Source of the DNA: Clostridia bacterium
GTDB taxonomy: Bacteria; Bacillota; Clostridia; Oscillospirales; CAG-272
Direction: 5' to 3'
DNA: 44,959 nucleotides
Assembly (NCBI GenBank): GCA_017461635.1
Contig: JAFTXK010000078.1
Span: forward strand, 1 to 44,959
A program made the translations under genes and the position numbers. Position 1 is the stretch's first letter; every line of letters begins with the position of its first letter. The notes below the pieces were generated by a model, which saw only the letters and a list, made by a program, of their open reading frames with translations, was not told the origin of the DNA and did no database searches. Positions 3,764 through 17,273 of the stretch are shown here, piece after piece.

Positions 3764-4957
3764 TTAAATCAGCTTAAAACCAAAATCGGTGAGAGCCTTC
3801 TTTATCTGCTCGATATGCTCGAAATTGCGTGTTTCAAGGATGATACGCAGATAGCACCCGTTGACATCCGAGCCCTCGTTTGCGCGTTCGTGGTGAACGG
3901 AGATTACATTGCCGCCGAGATCTGCGATGATGCGGGAAACATTCTTAAGCTGTCCGGGTTTATCCACCAGCTCTATCATGAGCTGAGCGCTTCTGCCCGA
4001 CATGAGCAGACCGCGCTTGATAACGCGTGAAAGGATGGTAACGTCAATATTACCGCCCGAAAGCAGACAAACGACCTTCTTGCCTGCGATATCGACCTTT
4101 CCGAACATTGCCGCCTCAACCGATACCGCGCCCGCGCCCTCTGTGACCAGCTTATGCTGTTCCATAAGTGCGAGGATAGCCGCGGAAATTTCGTCATCTG
4201 TAACGGTAACGATCTCGTCAACGTACTGACGGCAAAGCTCATATGTAAGATTGCCCGGACATTTCACCGCGATACCGTCTGCAATGGTGGAAACGCTTTG
4301 AAGCGTCTCGATCCTTCCGTCATGGAGCGAATTTGCCATAGAGGGCGCACCGCTTGCCTGAACGCCGTAGACCTTAACATTCGGATTCAGCATTTTCATT
4401 GTATATGCAACGCCGGAAATAAGTCCGCCGCCGCCGACGGGAACGATCACGGCATCGATATCCGCTATCTGTTCCGCAATTTCAAGGGCAATAGTACCCT
4501 GACCTGCAATAACGTCCTCATCATTGAAGGGATGGATAAAGGTATAGCCCATTTCATCACGAAGCTCCAGCGCCTTGTTGTATGCATCGTCATAAACGCC
4601 TTCAACGAGACAGACCTCTGCACCGTAACTTTTTGTTGCCTCAACCTTTGAAATTGGTGCGCCATCGGGCAGGCAGATAACTGCCTTTATGCCGTTTTTC
4701 TGTGCCGCAAGAGCAACGCCCTGAGCGTGGTTTCCCGCACTGCAGGCAATAACGCCGCGCGCCTTCTCCTCCTCGGAGAGCTTTGACATCTTATAGTATG
4801 CGCCTCTTACCTTAAATGAGCCCGTGATCTGCAGATTCTCTGTTTTAAGATATATCTCTGCATCTTTTCTCAGCTTCGGCGCATAGATCACATCTGTCTT
4901 TCTGACCACGTTCTTCAGCGCATAGCTGGCTTTATACACATTATCGAGTGTCATCAC
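3764..4957 (-). CDS. ilvA: Threonine ammonia-lyase (biosynthetic threonine dehydratase, short form with one C-terminal ACT-like domain)
   Basis: PLP-lysine motif ITGSFKVRGA, glycine loop GGGGLISG, ~397 aa. The start is GTG 4957 or ATG 4954, downstream of GAGGTG. Confidence 0.9.
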   Translation of the reverse strand: MMTLDNVYKASYALKNVVRKTDVIYAPKLRKDAEIYLKTENLQITGSFKVRGAYYKMSKLSEEEKARGVIACSAGNHAQGVALAAQKNGIKAVICLPDGAPISKVEATKSYGAEVCLVEGVYDDAYNKALELRDEMGYTFIHPFNDEDVIAGQGTIALEIAEQIADIDAVIVPVGGGGLISGVAYTMKMLNPNVKVYGVQASGAPSMANSLHDGRIETLQSVSTIADGIAVKCPGNLTYELCRQYVDEIVTVTDDEISAAILALMEQHKLVTEGAGAVSVEAAMFGKVDIAGKKVVCLLSGGNIDVTILSRVIKRGLLMSGRSAQLMIELVDKPGQLKNVSRIIADLGGNVISVHHERANEGSDVNGCYLRIILETRNFEHIEQIKKALTDFGFKLI

Positions 4958-6150: not shown

Positions 6151-7218
<1,068 letters not shown>

Positions 7219-9703: not shown

Positions 9704-11365
9704 TTACTTATTTATGATAGCACCCTTGTCGGCTGAGCTTACCATTGCCGCATAGCGCTTCAGATAACCATTCAGGTTTTCCTTCTTCTTTATGGGCATT
9801 TCAGCCTTTCTCTTTGCTATTTCTTCGTCCGAAACCTTAAGAGAAATGCGGTATTCGGGGATATTGATGGAGATAATATCGCCGTCCTTTACATAAGCGA
9901 TAGTGCCGCCCGAGACAGCCTCAGGAGAAACATGACCGATAGAAGCACCGCGTGTTGCGCCGGAGAAACGACCGTCTGTAATAAGAGCCACATCCTTATC
10001 AAGACCCATACCTGCAATTGCCGAGGTGGGAGAGAGCATCTCTCTCATGCCGGGACCGCCCGAAGGACCTTCATAGCGGATAACAACAACGTCACCCTTT
10101 ACGATTTTTCCTGCGTAAATTGCCGAAATAGCCTCTTCCTCGCTCTCATAGACCTTTGCAGGACCTTCGTGAACGAGCATTTCGGGAGCAACTGCGCTTC
10201 TCTTAACAACACATCCGTCGGGAGCAAGATTACCCTTCAAAACCGCAATACCGCCTGTTTTTGTAAAGGCTGTTTCGGGTGTTCTGATGGTCTCGGGATC
10301 GCGGTTATAAGCATCAGCAATATTTTCAGCCATCGTCTTGCCTGTTACGGTCATAACAGAGGTATCAAGCAGACCGAGCTTGTCAATTTCACGGAGCACT
10401 GCGTAAACGCCGCCTGCTTCGTTAAGGTCTTCCATATATGTAGGACCTGCGGGCGCAAGATGGCAGAGGTTGGGAGTAACCTCGCTTATTCTGTTTACTT
10501 CTTCAAGATCAAATTCAACGCCGCATTCGTTTGCGATTGCGGGCAGATGAAGCATACTGTTTGTTGAGCATCCCAGAGCCATGTCCGCTGTGATTGCATT
10601 CTTTATTGCCGCCGCTGTCATGATGTCACGGGGACGGATATTCTTCTTTATCAGCTCCATAACCTGCATGCCTGCGTGCTTTGCCAGCTCTATTCTTGCG
10701 GAATAAACTGCAGGAATAGTGCCGTTTCCGCGCAGACCCATGCCGAGAACCTCAGTGAGACAGTTCATGGAGTTTGCTGTATACATACCCGAGCAAGATC
10801 CGCAGGTGGGGCAAGCCTTATTTTCAAATTCACAGAGCTTATCCTCGCCGATATTTCCTGCCTTATATGCGCCGACAGCCTCAAACATTGCCGAAAGACT
10901 TCTCTTCTTGCCGTCAACTCTGCCTGCCAGCATAGGACCGCCGCTGACGAAAACGGTTGGGATATTAAGTCTCGCCGCCGCCATAAGCAGACCCGGTACA
11001 TTCTTATCGCAGTTGGGGATCATAACAAGTCCGTCAAAGCCATGCGCCATGACCATTGCCTCTGTTGAATCGGCAATGAGGTCTCTTGTTACAAGTGAGT
11101 ACTTCATGCCGACATGACCCATTGCAATACCGTCGCAGACAGCGATCGCAGGGAACATGATAGGCGTTCCGCCTGCCATTGCAACACCCAGCTTAACGGC
11201 CTCGGTGATCTTATCCAGATTCATGTGTCCGGGTACTATTTCATTATACGAGCTGACAATACCGATGAGAGGTCTGTCCATTTCTTCCTTTGTAAGTCCG
11301 AGCGCCTTGTAGAGCGAGCGGTGAGGCGCATTGTGCGCGCCGTTTACTATCGTATCTTTGATCAT
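9704..11365 (-). CDS. ilvD: Dihydroxy-acid dehydratase
   Basis: [24 protein letters not shown]..., CDKNVPG and [15 protein letters not shown] motifs. The true start is ATG 11365, preceded by AAGGAAGGAA. The track ORF carries a 22-aa spurious N-extension. Confidence 0.95.
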
Positions 11366-11450
11366 AATTCTATTCCTTCCTTTGAAAAGTGCGTTATTGT
11401 TCACGGAAACGGGCGAGATAGCTCTCGTCAATTTCCACGGACAATAATTA

Positions 11451-11479
11451 TTGACATTTTTCGCCCCTTATGATATAAT
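11451..11479 (+). promoter_or_regulatory. SigmaA promoter of peptide (toxin-like) mRNA A
   Basis: TTGACA-17 nt-TATAAT with an extended -10 (TGaTATAAT). It points away from ilvD. Confidence 0.7.
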
Positions 11480-11587
11480 CTTACCCGGAAACCTCGGTTT
11501 CCCGGAGAGTACCATAAAACGGTGGCGGTTGCTTCCTTATTTTTGAGGAAGTGTAAATCTTTTTGCCTTCCTCACACGAGGGAGGTG

Positions 11588-11680
11588 ATGAAAGTGGATA
11601 ATGTTACGTGGAACGATCTTATTCAGATCGCATTTCTTGTCTTTGCCATTTTATCTTGTTTTTATAACAAAAAAAGATAA
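11588..11680 (+). CDS. Small hydrophobic peptide A, putative type I toxin (30 aa from the ATG; 28 aa if GTG 11594 is used)
   Basis: MKVDNVTWNDLIQIAFLVFAILSCFYNKKR: one predicted TM helix plus a basic C-terminal tail. GGAGG (11581-11585) lies 8 nt before GTG 11594. It is a paralog of peptide B and too short for the ORF track. Confidence 0.6.
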   Translation: MKVDNVTWNDLIQIAFLVFAILSCFYNKKR

Positions 11681-11752
11681 CCGCCCAGCTTCCAAAATGT
11701 GCGGTTATCTTTAATCGTAAACTTGGGAAGCAACCGTCACACGGTGCTCTCC
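11668..11752 (-). ncRNA. Putative antisense sRNA A (antitoxin-like), ~85 nt
   Basis: It starts ~7 nt after the consensus -10 (GGAGAGCACCGUGUGACGGUUGCUUCC...) and ends at hairpin AGATAACCGC/GCGGTTATCT (11675-11710) followed by UUUUUUU on the minus strand. It overlaps the last codons and 3' UTR of peptide A. Confidence 0.6.
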
Positions 11753-11758
11753 GTTACT

Positions 11759-11787
11759 ATTATAACCGACTTATCGTTTTTTGTCAA
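11759..11787 (-). promoter_or_regulatory. Consensus sigmaA promoter of antisense sRNA A
   Basis: Minus strand reads TTGACA-17 nt-TATAAT exactly, with an AT-rich upstream tract. Confidence 0.7.
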
Positions 11788-11863
11788 TAGTTTAATTATA
11801 AAAAACAGTACTTTTGCTAAGTTTTCATATTGTCTCACATATATGGCACTATTGACGACTGTA

Positions 11864-11892
11864 TTGACAAAAATCGTCAAATATGATATACT
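11864..11892 (+). promoter_or_regulatory. SigmaA promoter of peptide (toxin-like) mRNA B
   Basis: TTGACA-17 nt-TATACT with TGn extended -10. A 7-bp inverted repeat TTGACGA/TCGTCAA (11852-11858 / 11874-11880) brackets the -35. Confidence 0.65.
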
Positions 11893-12008
11893 TACCTTGG
11901 AGACCCGAAAGGCTCTCCCGGAGAGTGCCATATAACGGTGGCGGTTGCTTCCCTTAACGGGAACGCAGATTTTTTTTTGTTTGCCTTCCCGAGAGGGGAG
12001 GTGATGCT

Positions 12009-12098
12009 GTGTATTTAACACTTGAGCAGTTATTCCTGATTTCAGGTTTTATACTTGCCCTTCTTACTTACATTGACAATCATAACAAAAAGAAATAA
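12009..12098 (+). CDS. Small hydrophobic peptide B, putative type I toxin (29 aa, GTG start)
   Basis: (M)YLTLEQLFLISGFILALLTYIDNHNKKK. GGAGG (11997-12001) lies 7 nt before GTG 12009. It has the same architecture as peptide A (xTxxxL-hydrophobic helix-NKK[RK]). Confidence 0.6.
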   Translation: MYLTLEQLFLISGFILALLTYIDNHNKKK

Positions 12099-12172
12099 CC
12101 GCCTCTGCTTCGAAACGTAGGCGGTTAAATCTTTTAACTTAAGCGTGGAAGCAACCGTCATCGGTGCTCTCC
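12086..12172 (-). ncRNA. Putative antisense sRNA B (antitoxin-like), ~87 nt
   Basis: It starts after the consensus promoter (GGAGAGCACCGAUGACGGUUGCUUCC...) and ends at hairpin TAACCGCCT/AGGCGGTTA (12096-12127) followed by UUUCUUUUUGUU on the minus strand. It overlaps the peptide B stop codon and 3' UTR. Confidence 0.6.
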
Positions 12173-12178
12173 GTTACT

Positions 12179-12207
12179 ATTATAACCGACTTATCAATTC
12201 TTGTCAA
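12179..12207 (-). promoter_or_regulatory. Consensus sigmaA promoter of antisense sRNA B
   Basis: Minus strand TTGACA-17 nt-TATAAT. The block 12162-12222 is nearly identical to 11742-11802. Confidence 0.7.
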
Positions 12208-12243
12208 TAGTTTAATTATAAATTTTTTAACAATTCCGGCACA

Positions 12244-12272
12244 GGGGGCTTTTCTTTTATGAAAAAGCCCCC
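12244..12272. other. Strong stem-loop just downstream of the ilvC stop
   Basis: GGGGGCTTTT-cttttatga-AAAAGCCCCC (10-bp stem). No clean U-tract follows on either strand. It could be a partial terminator or stabiliser for ilvC (minus) and/or the end of mRNA B (plus). Confidence 0.4.
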
Positions 12273-12294
12273 GATGCGTTTGGTGTCAAATATA

Positions 12295-13344
<1,050 letters not shown>

Positions 13345-13357
13345 TTATTGTTTCTTT

Positions 13358-13384
13358 GCCTTCCCTGCAAGGGAAGGCTTTTTA
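13358..13384 (+). terminator. Stem-loop with a T-tract only on the + (non-coding) strand, between ilvN and ilvC
   Basis: GCCTTCCCT-gca-AGGGAAGGC followed by TTTTTA on the + strand. On the operon (minus) strand it is followed by AAAGAAAC, so it is not a terminator in the sense direction. Confidence 0.4.
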
Positions 13385-13876
13385 TTTGTTGAGAAGCGTA
13401 CCTGCGCCTCTTTCAAGGGCTACGATACCCGTGCGGCACATTTCAAGGATGCCGTAGGGCTCCATGAGCTTAACAAAAGCATCTATCTTTGTGGGGTCGC
13501 CCGTGATCTCGATGCAAAGTTCGGTTGCGGTATAGTCGATCACCTTTGCTCTATACACATTTGTCGCATCCAGCACATCCGAGCGTGTTTCACGGTTATT
13601 TTTAACCTTAATGAGCATCAGCTCGCGGGTAATCGGCGCATCGTCCAGAACCTCCACCTTTTTGACGTTATAGAGCTTCTTCATCTGATTTATCATCATC
13701 TGTCTCATATAATCGTCGCCGTCAAGTGTGATGGTGATACGGGAATAATCGGGGTTTTCCGTTTCGCCAACGGTCAAAGCGTCGATGTTGAAGCCGCGGC
13801 GGGTGAACATGCTGGTAACTCTTGTCAGAACGCCGGCTTTGTTATCAACATAGACCGCAATTACAAACTTACTCAT
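13382..13876 (-). CDS. ilvN: Acetolactate synthase small (regulatory) subunit
   Basis: MSKFVIAVYVDNKAGVLTRVTSMFTRRGFNIDALTVG... (ACT domain). ATG 13876 overlaps the ilvB stop (ATGAGTAA), with GGAGGGTG upstream. Confidence 0.9.
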   Translation of the reverse strand: MSKFVIAVYVDNKAGVLTRVTSMFTRRGFNIDALTVGETENPDYSRITITLDGDDYMRQMMINQMKKLYNVKKVEVLDDAPITRELMLIKVKNNRETRSDVLDATNVYRAKVIDYTATELCIEITGDPTKIDAFVKLMEPYGILEMCRTGIVALERGAGTLLNK

Positions 13877-15563
13877 TGCCTTCACCCTCCTTATTTACAA
13901 TAATATCATCAATAGAGCCGCCGGGAGGAAGCATGGGAAGAACAAATTCGTCCTTATCGATAAGAGTATCGATGATAACAGGTCTGCCTGCCGCTAGAGC
14001 ATCCTCAAATGCCTTTGCAAACTCGTCCGGAGTAGCCGCTCTTACGCCGATAGCGCCAAAAGCCTCTGCCAGCTTAACGAAATCGGTCTGTCTGCCGAGC
14101 ACGGTGTTTGAATATCTCTTTCCGAAGAAGAGTGTCTGCCACTGGCGAACCATTCCGAGAACGCCATTGTTCATAAGAACGATAACAACAGGGATATTAT
14201 AAGAAACCGCCGTTGCAACCTCATTGAGATTCATGCCGAAGCTTCCGTCGCCCGTGATAAGGACTGTAGGATCGCCGCTTCCGACCATTGCGCCGAGAGC
14301 CGCACCGAGACCGAAGCCCATTGTTCCAAGTCCGCCCGAGGAAACAAAGCGTCTTGGACCGTCAAAATCCGCATACTGCGCCGCCCACATCTGATGTTGT
14401 CCAACATCGGTTGCGATAACGGTATGCGCAGGCTTCTTTTCGTTGATAATATCAAGAACCTTTTTGGGCGTAAGCGCGCCCTTGGCTCTTTCCTCTGCCT
14501 TCTTTTCAAGGTCTGCCTCGCGAGCCTTCAGAGACCCAACAAGCTCGTTCCATTCGGGATGCTTTGCCCGAGGGAGAGCCGCCGCGATTCTCGTAAAGGA
14601 ATCGTAAACATCGGCAACGATACCGAGATCAACATTTATATTCTTATTTATCTCCGCAAAATCGGGATCAAGCTGAATTATCTTACTGTTCTTTGCAAAT
14701 TTTGCCGCATTTCCCGTGGCTCTGTCGCTGAAACGAACTCCAACCGCCAAGATAAGGTCGGAATCCTTTTGCGCCAAGGATGAAGCGAAATGACCGTGCA
14801 TACCCTGCATACCGAGGAAGCGTTCACAGCTATTTGGAATAGCGGAAAGTCCCATAAAGGAGCATCCGATATAAGCATCGATCTTTTCGGCAAGAGCCAT
14901 TATCTCCTTGCCCATTCCCAGACCTGCCGCGCCGCCGCCGATATAGATATAGGGGCGCTTTGCCTCCTTTATCATATCAACCGCCGCATCGATCTCGCTC
15001 TGCTCAGCCTTTGGCAGAGGGATCTTGGGAGCGACCGGCTGAATCTCAAAATCGTATTCCGCGATCTGAACATCCTTCGGAACATCGATAAGAACGGGGC
15101 CCGGTCTGCCGGATTTTGCAATGCTGAATGCCTCGCGGATGGTGTCTGCAAGATCAGCAATATTTTTAACTATGTAGTTATGCTTTGTGATTGGAAGCGT
15201 AACGCCTACGATATCTATCTCCTGGAAGCTGTCACGTCCGAGGAGAGGGCAGGGAACATTTCCCGTGATGGCAACCATCGGAACAGAATCAAGCATTGCT
15301 GTTGCGATACCTGTAACAAGATTTGTCGCACCGGGGCCCGAGGTTGCAATGCAAACGCCGACCTTGCCGGTAGCTCTCGAATAGCCGTCGGCGGCGTGTG
15401 CCGCACCCTGCTCGTGAGCTGTTAAAATGTGATTTATTCTGTCGCTGTTTTTATAGAGGGCGTCATAGATATTTAGTACCTGACCGCCCGGATAACCGAA
15501 AACATCGGTAACGCCCTGCTCAATGAGGGTGTTTACGATGATCTCCGCACCTGTCATTTTCAT
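13869..15563 (-). CDS. ilvB: Acetolactate synthase large (catalytic) subunit
   Basis: 564 aa ThDP enzyme: MTGAEIIVNTLIEQGVTDVFGYPGGQVLNIYDAL..., ...GDGSFGMNLNE... Confidence 0.93.
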   Translation of the reverse strand: MKMTGAEIIVNTLIEQGVTDVFGYPGGQVLNIYDALYKNSDRINHILTAHEQGAAHAADGYSRATGKVGVCIATSGPGATNLVTGIATAMLDSVPMVAITGNVPCPLLGRDSFQEIDIVGVTLPITKHNYIVKNIADLADTIREAFSIAKSGRPGPVLIDVPKDVQIAEYDFEIQPVAPKIPLPKAEQSEIDAAVDMIKEAKRPYIYIGGGAAGLGMGKEIMALAEKIDAYIGCSFMGLSAIPNSCERFLGMQGMHGHFASSLAQKDSDLILAVGVRFSDRATGNAAKFAKNSKIIQLDPDFAEINKNINVDLGIVADVYDSFTRIAAALPRAKHPEWNELVGSLKAREADLEKKAEERAKGALTPKKVLDIINEKKPAHTVIATDVGQHQMWAAQYADFDGPRRFVSSGGLGTMGFGLGAALGAMVGSGDPTVLITGDGSFGMNLNEVATAVSYNIPVVIVLMNNGVLGMVRQWQTLFFGKRYSNTVLGRQTDFVKLAEAFGAIGVRAATPDEFAKAFEDALAAGRPVIIDTLIDKDEFVLPMLPPGGSIDDIIVNKEGEGNE

Positions 15564-15587
15564 TGGAGTGTAGTCCTTTCTATGGAA

Positions 15588-17273
15588 TTATTTATGCGCG
15601 TCCATCAGTCTGTTGACTGCGCTCACAAGAGCTCTTACCGAGGCCTTGATGATATCATGGCTTATGCCCGTACCCCAGTAGATCTCATCATTATATTTAA
15701 TGCTGACATAGGATGCCGCCTTTGAGCTGGATTTGCCTTCAAGGGCGTGCTGTGTATAGCTTTCGAGGACATAATCAAGTCCTGTGAGAGAATGAATCGC
15801 GTTTGAAACCGCGTCAAGACGTCCGTTACCCATTTTGGTAAGCTCGATCTCCTTACCTGCCAGAACTATGTTGCAGTTTGCACGGATATCCTCGCCTACG
15901 TCCTCATATACCGCCTTCTTCACCTCGATATTTGTCGTCAGATTGACAAAGTCACGCATAAAGATGTCATAAACCTCGCTCGGCTGAAGCTCTCTGTGCT
16001 CATGGTCGGAAATGCTCTTGACATGATATCCGAATGCCTCGCGCATCTTGGGAGGAAGCACATGGCTGTACTGAGTTTCAAGGATATAACCGATGCCGCC
16101 CTTACCCGATTGGGAGTTGATGCGGATAACGTCTGCCTCATAAACCCTGCCGATATCGGCGGGATCGATGGGAAGATAGGGCACGTTCCAGATCTTTGCG
16201 TCCTTTTCCACCCGGTGCTTCATACCCTTTGCGATAGCGTCCTGGTGAGAACCGCTGAACGCCGCGAATACAAGCTGACCGCTGTAGGGCTGTCTCTCAT
16301 AGACGTGCATTCTGGTGACCTTTTCATAGACCTTTGTGATCTCGGGGAGATTTGAGAAATCAAGTCCGGGATCAACTCCCTGAGAATACATATTCAGTGC
16401 GAGAGTTACGATATCAACATTACCCGTTCTCTCGCCGTTGCCGAAGAGGGTTCCCTCAATTCTGTCGCCGCCTGCAAGCAGACCCATTTCGCTGTCCGCC
16501 ACCGCGCATCCTCTGTCGTTATGAGGATGGAGCGAAATTATAAGATTTTCTCTGTGCAGAAGATTCTTGCACATATATTCAACCTGATTTGCATAGACAT
16601 GAGGCATTGAATGTGAAACGGTTACGGGAAGGTTGATAATGACCTTATCCTCCGCCGTAGGCTCCCAAATCTTTATGACCTCGTTGCATATCTCAGCGGC
16701 ATATTCGGGCTCGGTGCCTGTAAAGCTCTCGGGAGAATATTCAAAGGTTATTTCACCGTCACCGTTTGCTCTTGCCTGCTCTCTATATTTTTTGCAAAGC
16801 TCAGCACCGAATTTTGCAATTTCGGTTATCTCGTCCTTGCTGCGTCTGAAAACCTGCTCTCTCTGCGCCACTGAGGTGGAATTATAGAGGTGAACCACGG
16901 CATGCTTTGCGCCTTTGATCGCCTCAAAGGTTTTTGCTATTATATGCTCTCTCGATTGGGTAAGAACCTGAATCGTAACATCATCGGGAATAAGATTCTG
17001 CTCGATGATTGTGCGGCAAAATTCGTATTCTGTTTCCGAAGCGGCAGGGAAGCCTACCTCGATCTCCTTAAATCCAACTTTAACGAGAAGCTTGAAAAAT
17101 TCCAGCTTTTCTTCGAGGCTCATGGGGACTATCAGCGCCTGATTGCCGTCGCGCAGGTCAACACTGCACCAATAGGGGGGCTTATCGATCTGTGTTTTCT
17201 TCATCCAGTCCATTGTCACTCCCTCGGGGGCGAAGAACTGGGGGGCATATTTGTTTACATTTTTCATTGTCAT
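15588..17273 (-). CDS. leuA: 2-isopropylmalate synthase (long LeuA type)
   Basis: 561 aa with ...WCSVDLRDGNQAL..., HPHNDRG and a C-terminal LeuA dimerisation/regulatory region. RBS AAGGAG lies 9 nt upstream. Confidence 0.93.
   Translation of the reverse strand: MTMKNVNKYAPQFFAPEGVTMDWMKKTQIDKPPYWCSVDLRDGNQALIVPMSLEEKLEFFKLLVKVGFKEIEVGFPAASETEYEFCRTIIEQNLIPDDVTIQVLTQSREHIIAKTFEAIKGAKHAVVHLYNSTSVAQREQVFRRSKDEITEIAKFGAELCKKYREQARANGDGEITFEYSPESFTGTEPEYAAEICNEVIKIWEPTAEDKVIINLPVTVSHSMPHVYANQVEYMCKNLLHRENLIISLHPHNDRGCAVADSEMGLLAGGDRIEGTLFGNGERTGNVDIVTLALNMYSQGVDPGLDFSNLPEITKVYEKVTRMHVYERQPYSGQLVFAAFSGSHQDAIAKGMKHRVEKDAKIWNVPYLPIDPADIGRVYEADVIRINSQSGKGGIGYILETQYSHVLPPKMREAFGYHVKSISDHEHRELQPSEVYDIFMRDFVNLTTNIEVKKAVYEDVGEDIRANCNIVLAGKEIELTKMGNGRLDAVSNAIHSLTGLDYVLESYTQHALEGKSSSKAASYVSIKYNDEIYWGTGISHDIIKASVRALVSAVNRLMDAHK

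Follow-up and report, generated by a model that had tools for sequence, protein, structure and literature searches.

Two tandem candidate BsrG/SR4-type toxin-antitoxin cassettes with a predicted 5'-3' closure of the toxin mRNA in the ilvC-ilvD spacer of a Clostridia bacterium

The stretch of DNA considered here, in the following called the window, comprises 44,959 nucleotides (nt) of contig JAFTXK010000078.1 from a Clostridia bacterium (assembly GCA_017461635.1). Within the window, the spacer at 11432-12294 between two minus-strand genes, ilvD (9704-11365/11431) and ilvC (12295-13311), carries two tandem cassettes of ~340 base pairs (bp) each, denoted copy A and copy B. Each cassette consists of a consensus promoter, a structured 5' untranslated region (UTR), an open reading frame (ORF) for a hydrophobic peptide of 28-29 amino acids, and a convergent small RNA (sRNA) of ~85 nt. 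On each strand, two consensus sigma-70 promoters frame the cassettes, those on the plus strand for the peptide mRNAs and those on the minus strand for the sRNAs. We consider both cassettes, with a probability of about 0.6, to be type I toxin-antitoxin pairs related to BsrG/SR4, in which the ends of the toxin mRNA are closed by a long-range helix and the sRNA, by invading this helix, drives the Shine-Dalgarno (SD) sequence into a locked state.

The proposed closure is built from two inverted repeats. The motif GGAGAGYRCC is found at 11504-11513 and 11920-11929 on the plus strand and at 11743-11752 and 12163-12172 on the minus strand (4 matches versus 0.31 expected; 0 of 100 shuffles reach 4). 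The second motif, CGGTTGCTTCC, is found at 11526-11536 and 11942-11952 on the plus strand and at 11726-11736 and 12147-12157 on the minus strand (4 matches versus 0.77 expected). Neither motif occurs elsewhere in the 45-kb window. At the RNA level the repeats give rise to two helices, H1 with 11 bp (in copy A 11503-11513 with 11743-11753) and H2 with 15 bp, the latter formed by GUGGCGGUUGCUUCC (11522-11536) and GGAAGCAACCGUCAC (11726-11740); together they contain two G.U pairs. Both helices had been proposed in a first-pass annotation of the window by a model, and all positions given there are present exactly, the helices being slightly longer than listed. That annotation also expected the closure to be thermodynamically favoured, which agrees with the folds: in RNAfold the minimum-free-energy structures of the two copies both contain it (z-scores relative to dinucleotide shuffles -9.7 and -8.9), the pair probabilities being ~1.0 (H1) and 0.6 (H2) in copy A and ~0.97 (H1) and ~1.0 (H2) in copy B. 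The A-U to G-U difference between the copies in H1, put forward as compensatory, is a one-sided wobble only.

The features of copy A are, in order of their position:
11451-11479, plus strand: toxin-mRNA promoter, TTGACA-17-TATAAT, TG-extended (12/12 consensus match), kept in the family alignment described below
11487-11502, plus strand: 5'-terminal hairpin P0 (GGAAAC..GUUUCC), part of the minimum-free-energy fold, with 6 of 6 pairs covarying in the family
11503-11513, plus strand: 5' arm of H1, CGGAGAGUACC, pair probability ~1.0
11522-11536, plus strand: 5' arm of H2, GUGGCGGUUGCUUCC, with segment a, a second anti-SD, in its 3' part (GCUUCC)
11544-11552, plus strand: segment b, UGAGGAAGU, SD-like, with either a or the anti-SD c as partner, varying jointly with a, c and d across the family
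11565-11586, plus strand: SD hairpin of the anti-SD c, GCCUUCCUC, the loop ACAC and the SD d, GAGGGAGGU; predicted by RNAalifold, probability ~0.9
11594-11680, plus strand: putative toxin ORF MDNVTWNDLIQIAFLVFAILSCFYNKKR, with a GTG start 8 nt past GGAGG and an in-frame ATG at 11588
11673-11712: hairpin T1 (-17.6 kcal/mol), the sRNA terminator on the minus strand and its complement hairpin on the plus strand; the stem covaries, and the A-tract holds the toxin stop codon and Lys codons
11726-11740, plus strand: 3' arm of H2, GGAAGCAACCGUCAC
11743-11753, plus strand: 3' arm of H1, GGUGCUCUCCG
11666-11752, minus strand: antisense sRNA of ~85 nt, beginning with GGAGAGCACCG.., composed of a 5' hairpin and the T1 terminator, its 3' end placed by the U-tract
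11759-11787, minus strand: sRNA promoter (12/12 consensus match)

Copy B is organised as follows:
11864-11892, plus strand: toxin-mRNA promoter (11/12 consensus match)
11899-11918, plus strand: 5'-terminal hairpin P0
11919-11929, plus strand: 5' arm of H1, CGGAGAGUGCC
11938-11952, plus strand: 5' arm of H2, GUGGCGGUUGCUUCC, including segment a
11957-11966, plus strand: segment b, ACGGGAACGC, with a predicted b-c pairing of 0.85-0.88
11983-12002, plus strand: anti-SD and SD region, GCCUUCCC GAGA GGGGAGGU
12009-12098, plus strand: putative toxin ORF MYLTLEQLFLISGFILALLTYIDNHNKKK (Pfam Hol_Tox, 24.0 bits, cut-off 23.3)
12088-12135: hairpin T1, resembling a bidirectional terminator (-18.9 kcal/mol)
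12147-12161, plus strand: 3' arm of H2
12163-12173, plus strand: 3' arm of H1
12084-12172, minus strand: antisense sRNA
12179-12207, minus strand: sRNA promoter (12/12 consensus match)

A genome scan with the repeat motifs returned 77 loci, ~65 of which are real, the remainder corresponding to the ~12 chance matches estimated in advance. The real loci all originate from metagenome-assembled genomes of animal guts, classified as Clostridia, Eubacteriales, Oscillospiraceae or Ruminococcus, and often occur in several copies per genome. Profile search and alignment resulted in 54 full cassettes. A second scan, applied to metagenomes and using an SD-hairpin pattern that is independent of H1 and H2, gave only 6 more, and the unbiased sample is therefore small. 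The final alignment comprises 59 cassettes, to which the family counts below refer unless another number is given. Viral contigs, plasmid collections and phage collections yielded no relatives.

Across the alignment the complementarity seen in the two window copies is kept, with few compensatory changes. The mean pair probabilities are 0.90 for H1 and 0.91 for H2, standard pairs make up 96.9% of the H1/H2 cells, and the RNAalifold consensus independently recovers P0, H1, H2, the SD hairpin and T1. Changes on both sides are found in 6 of the 26 H1/H2 pairs, compared to 1.0 +/- 0.7 in column shuffles (0 of 500 reach the observed value) and at most 1 in slid controls. The compensated pairs come from few lineages. 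Locus L083 contributes four of them (G-C to A-U in H1; U-A to A-U, G-C to C-G and U-A to C-G in H2), and its segment b is altered to match a; L093 shows a C-G to A-U compensation, and L038 together with two other cassettes (3 cells) an A-U to G-C compensation. In contrast to H1 and H2, the stems of P0 and T1 covary richly. An observation from a single relative concerns the geometry of the closure: L065 (6044-6435, minus strand) carries a structured insertion of ~55 nt in the loop between the 5' arms of H1 and H2 with both arms intact, which fits the H1-H2 linker being an unconstrained internal loop.

The encoded peptides relate the cassettes to a known toxin family. The ORFs begin with GTG 7-8 nt past GGAGG and end in NKKR or NKKK; in the family, an intact ORF of 27-31 amino acids that starts 7-9 nt past GGAGG is present in 55 of the cassettes. 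Hol_Tox (PF16935) is the sole Pfam family matched by the peptides, with matches in 17 of 42 distinct family peptides (18 of 43 aligned, counting BsrG). The peptide of copy B lies above the threshold; the peptide of copy A has no Pfam match of its own and is homologous to the Hol_Tox members by position and pattern. For comparison, 27.2 bits were obtained for the majority family peptide and 34.5 bits for BsrG of the Bacillus subtilis element SPbeta, the query sequence of the latter having been confirmed by tblastn with 100% identity. The peptides are presumably toxic. We note that copy B also contains a 4-codon out-of-frame mini-ORF (ATG CTG TGT ATT TAA, 12004-12018) that begins 2 nt past the SD and extends over the GTG start codon of the toxin; in most relatives this position is taken by an in-frame ATG.

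The minus-strand promoters set the start of transcription exactly at GGAGAGCACC. Judging from promoters and folds, the resulting sRNAs consist of a 5' hairpin followed by a strong intrinsic terminator, whose U-tract is the complement of the Lys-Lys-Lys-stop codons of the toxin; the first 26 nt can fold alone as a hairpin. The sRNA is encoded opposite the toxin 3' UTR and is perfectly complementary to it. Its 5' end nearly repeats the mRNA 5' arm and is not complementary to it; there are two fixed differences, both of them G.U-compatible with the 3' arm. Since the two sequences are nearly the same, the sRNA and the mRNA 5' arm must compete for the 3' arm, as the first-pass annotation had pointed out.

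The region that would be affected by this competition is the SD itself, which lies in a conserved hairpin in both copies (11565-11586 and 11983-12002). The 5' UTR contains two anti-SD-like segments, a (GCUUCC, within the H2 5' arm) and c, as well as two SD-like segments, b and the true SD d, and all four change in concert over three sequence types in the family. The U.G wobble in the SD hairpin is kept in 53 of 54 cassettes, which fits a segment c that serves two partners. Segment b, noted early on as GAGGAAG in copy A and CGGGAA in copy B, does offer the anti-SD an alternative partner and is the predicted dominant one in copy B. The predicted folds differ in detail: copy A forms two hairpins, a-b and c-d, and copy B a nested a-d/b-c stem; in the closed form of both copies, a is predicted to shift to the 3' arm. 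A column-based covariation test of b with c suffers from the misalignment of three sequence types in this part of the alignment, which is rich in gaps.

To describe the accessibility of the SD, we calculated the energy required to make GGAGG single-stranded in three states of the mRNA for all cassettes of the alignment. The cost amounts to 4.2 kcal/mol in the closed full-length mRNA, to 9.2 kcal/mol in an mRNA terminated at T1 and to 9.1 kcal/mol when the 3' UTR is blocked as by the sRNA, and its direction (lower when closed) is identical in 57 of the 59 cassettes. The same calculation for bsrG, used as a positive control, returns the long-range helix P1 of that mRNA as well as the extended SD helix; the cost increases from 5.4 to 7.9 kcal/mol, in line with Jahn & Brantl 2013 (PMC3834814). 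According to this model, closure would keep the ribosome site partly open, not shut.

These elements can be combined into a putative mechanism. The toxin mRNA would start at its promoter with P0, continue through the small ORF and the complement of the T1 hairpin, and proceed into the 3' arm, which pairs with the 5' UTR via H1 and H2. In the closed mRNA the 3' arm would hold segment a, leaving one anti-SD for two SD-like segments, so that the SD would be open part of the time. Binding of the sRNA to the 3' UTR would evict the 5' arm and free a; both SD-like segments could then be paired and translation would be shut off. The sRNA thus probably represses translation at a distance, and the long sRNA-mRNA duplex is presumably cut by RNase III, by comparison with bsrG/SR4.

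The comparison with bsrG/SR4 is the closest available. In bsrG, P1 (nt 1-35 with 232-262) is opened by SR4, after which the SD helix grows from 4 to 8 bp (PMC3834814); P1 and the SR4-induced sequestration of the SD have both been shown experimentally (PMC3834814; PMC6562991). The present cassettes share with it the toxin family Hol_Tox, a convergent sRNA that overlaps the mRNA 3' end, and the succession of a Lys-rich C-terminus and stop codon opposite the U-tract of the antitoxin terminator, a hairpin and the 3' arm. A long 5'-3' helix encloses the SD hairpin and the ORF in both systems (here in silico), and pairing of the antitoxin with the 3' arm releases the 5' arm and sequesters the SD more tightly (here as a prediction). 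The systems differ in several respects. There is no detectable nucleotide similarity between bsrG/SR4 and the cassettes, and the latter are without an Rfam match, with nothing meaningful at the locus up to an E-value of 10 and nothing in the entire window at the gathering score. The sRNA, of ~85 nt, begins precisely where the 3' arm ends, whereas SR4 is 180 nt long and includes a 5' part of 57 nt outside the overlap. The internal hairpin of the cassettes has the appearance of a bidirectional terminator; a separate toxin terminator is missing from the window copies, and in relatives that possess one it overlaps the -35 box of the sRNA. The freed 5' arm would act here as a second anti-SD in a competition of four segments. 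Finally, the family is multicopy in gut Clostridia, whereas bsrG is prophage-borne in Bacilli. Taken as relatives of bsrG, the cassettes provide 59 natural variants of an mRNA design so far experimentally shown for bsrG, namely a 5'-3' helix whose opening by the antitoxin shuts the ribosome binding site from afar; the comparison suggests that this mechanism is an ancestral Hol_Tox feature and not a peculiarity of Bacillus. The comparative data also yield concrete mutations for testing the mechanism.

The mechanism depends on where the toxin mRNA ends, as the T1 hairpin is placed between the stop codon and the 3' arm. In 21 of the 59 cassettes, all of them relatives of the window copies, a hairpin with a U-run is found on the toxin strand downstream of the 3' arm. 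For 13 of these 21 terminators the position is fixed at 39-45 nt past the 3' arm, and their stems consist of the sRNA -35 box and a lineage-specific, covarying partner (GAGTTGA/TCAACTC, GCGGTT/AACCGC or AAGCCCC/GGGGCTT). A terminator scanner confirmed two of these downstream terminators. A terminator at this position is usable only by a transcript that has passed through the 3' arm, and the mRNA of those 13 relatives therefore very likely includes it. In bsrG, correspondingly, the terminator comes after P1. In these loci (L013 at 4525-4544 on the minus strand, L003 at 6649-6681 on the plus strand, and 11 further loci) the same DNA constitutes the sRNA promoter on one strand and the toxin terminator on the other. 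In the window copies, local folding of the 3' arm is possible (-12 kcal/mol), with GUUACUAUUAUA (GUUAYUAUUAUA) coming next, a combination that might act as terminator. We infer that the window mRNAs read through T1 as well.

A number of observations weigh against a closed mRNA as the functional form. Copies A and B have no recognisable terminator past the 3' arm, and an mRNA 3' end beyond that arm is hence putative for them. The tail of T1 on the toxin strand is moderately U-rich (UUAUUUCUU-like, 5.2 of 10 positions U, compared to 7.7 of 10 on the sRNA strand); being weaker but not negligible, it makes some termination before the 3' arm likely, and much of the toxin mRNA could end there. Most columns of H1 and H2 are simply invariant, and about half of the cassettes have an uncompensated A.C or U.C mismatch in H1. 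Most cassettes were ascertained by a pattern that contains the H1/H2 motifs, and only 6 by the independent pattern. Complementarity of the arms is logically equivalent to identity of the mRNA 5' arm and the sRNA 5' end, and a wobble-direction test that compares RNA pairing with sRNA identity gives 12 versus 8 sites (p=0.25). Formation of the closure in vivo is inferred.

A more far-reaching version of the mechanism, which we regard as a tentative possibility, holds jointly that read-through of T1 gates toxin synthesis and that the 26-nt 5' domain of the sRNA is a universal, cross-neutralising antitoxin module. Transcripts stopped at T1 would be locked off, with an SD cost of ~9 kcal/mol, and translation would be reserved for read-through transcripts, which alone acquire the 3' arm and can close. 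As a rule, the action of a type I antitoxin is confined to its cognate toxin mRNA. The 26-nt domain is identical in ~50 loci and survives in orphan sRNA genes; if the proposal is true, a single sRNA module would neutralise all paralogous toxin mRNAs in a genome. The orphan genes are located at L029, L039, L041, L056, L058, L061 and L073, where the promoter, the invariant 26-nt domain and T1 are kept, but either the 5' UTR or the ORF of the toxin has been replaced or truncated. Such a pattern suggests that the orphan sRNAs may be kept to act in trans on paralogous toxin mRNAs.

Alternatively, no closure might take place in vivo. The mRNA would then end at T1, the overlap with the sRNA would be limited to the T1 hairpin, as in par of the Enterococcus plasmid pAD1 (fst/RNA I-RNA II), and the similarity of the two 5' ends would reflect a shared stem-loop module for stability or for a common binding factor. 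The bidirectional appearance of T1, whose outer A/U pairs covary, and the ability of the sRNA 5' hairpin to fold alone are in line with this explanation, as are three of the points raised above, namely the tolerance of H1 to mismatches, the non-significant wobble test and the lack of downstream terminators in the window copies. We nonetheless consider it unlikely. The H1 5' arm is strongly conserved, although it would be largely unpaired in a T1-terminated RNA (P(unpaired) 0.44); 13-21 relatives possess a toxin-strand terminator that only a read-through transcript can use; and both fixed differences between the mRNA 5' arm and the sRNA preserve pairing with the 3' arm. The likeness to par consists in convergent transcription across a shared terminator-like hairpin and in the GUG or weak start of some members. 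In par, direct repeats in the DNA yield two RNAs with complementary 5' ends. The repeats of the present cassettes, being inverted, yield near-identical 5' ends that compete for a third site, which renders a par-like second contact impossible, and the toxin is not Fst. A par-like model was rejected on the grounds of this repeat orientation.

A further alternative concerns the polarity of the switch. In hok/Sok of plasmid R1, closure keeps the mRNA inert until trimming of the 3' end activates it, and Sok binds the 5' mok leader. The first-pass annotation had interpreted the cassettes by this logic, as fold-back inhibition combined with SD sequestration, in which case the full-length mRNA would be translationally inert until its 3' end is processed or the sRNA is lost. 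The two systems do resemble each other in that the mRNA of a small toxin pairs over a long range between its 5' and 3' ends and is accompanied by an antisense RNA; the closure is present and very stable, the SD remains mostly paired even when closed (~4 kcal/mol to open), and for many type I toxins the mRNA is first produced in an inert precursor form (PMC6562991). The calculated energies point in the opposite direction: closure is predicted to ease opening of the SD (~4.2 versus ~9.1-9.2 kcal/mol), and removing or blocking the 3' arm to tighten it by ~5 kcal/mol, in 57 of the 59 cassettes. Furthermore, the sRNA targets the 3' UTR and not the 5' leader, the peptide is of the Hol_Tox/BsrG type and unrelated to Hok, and the related bsrG shows the opposite polarity experimentally. 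We therefore reject a hok-like polarity on the basis of the energy calculations and the bsrG precedent and regard this alternative as improbable; the earlier interpretation was probably wrong with respect to the direction of the switch. More generally, the presence of a long-range clamp does not by itself justify the assumption that a toxin mRNA behaves like hok.

Very little speaks for a feature at the level of DNA, in which the repeats would delimit a small mobile element as its terminal repeats or serve as operators through which a DNA-binding regulator controls both convergent promoters. Such a feature would fit the presence of several cassettes per genome, their many genomic contexts and the position of the repeats just downstream of both promoters. 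Against it, the repeats do not enclose the promoters, neither conserved ends nor target duplications are seen in the flanks, the imperfections of the repeats preserve RNA pairing (G.U), and one arm covaries with b, a partner that exists only in the RNA. A miniature inverted-repeat transposable element (MITE) was rejected because the flanks are unconserved.

With a BsrG/SR4-like nature of the cassettes as the preferred reading, their distribution is of interest in its own right. According to a review from 2019, homologues of known type I toxins are mostly not found in Clostridia (PMC6563280), and the family is therefore apparently undescribed. It appears to be a widespread, multicopy BsrG-like family in animal-gut Clostridia, and the first such family there. 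Three cassettes from different genomes contain a structured insertion of ~85 nt, TAGCGAAGCGACGCCACGG...CCGTGGCGTGACCGAGCCGCAGCGAGAC, which varies in sequence and interrupts the SD hairpin at an identical point (toxin strand; L007 at about 820-910, L037 at about 150-240 and L044 at about 1050-1100). The insertion has no Rfam match and might represent a small RNA element of mobile or regulatory nature.

The genomic setting of the two window copies is an apparent ilv/leu operon on the minus strand (9704-17273), with the order leuA, ilvB, ilvN, ilvC, the cassettes, ilvD and an aconitase-type leuC; ilvC and ilvD were named from Pfam families on the source contigs. The sRNA terminators T1 are oriented like the operon and could hence be polar on ilvD. 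A look-up of the exact IlvC protein returned identical metagenome contigs only, without variation, and loci L008 and L064 have the same ilvC-side flank. A GC-rich hairpin, GGGGGCTTTT..AAAAGCCCCC, is located at 12239-12277, directly downstream of both ilvC and copy B. It is probably the ilvC terminator and may also serve as a stop for toxin-strand read-through from copy B.

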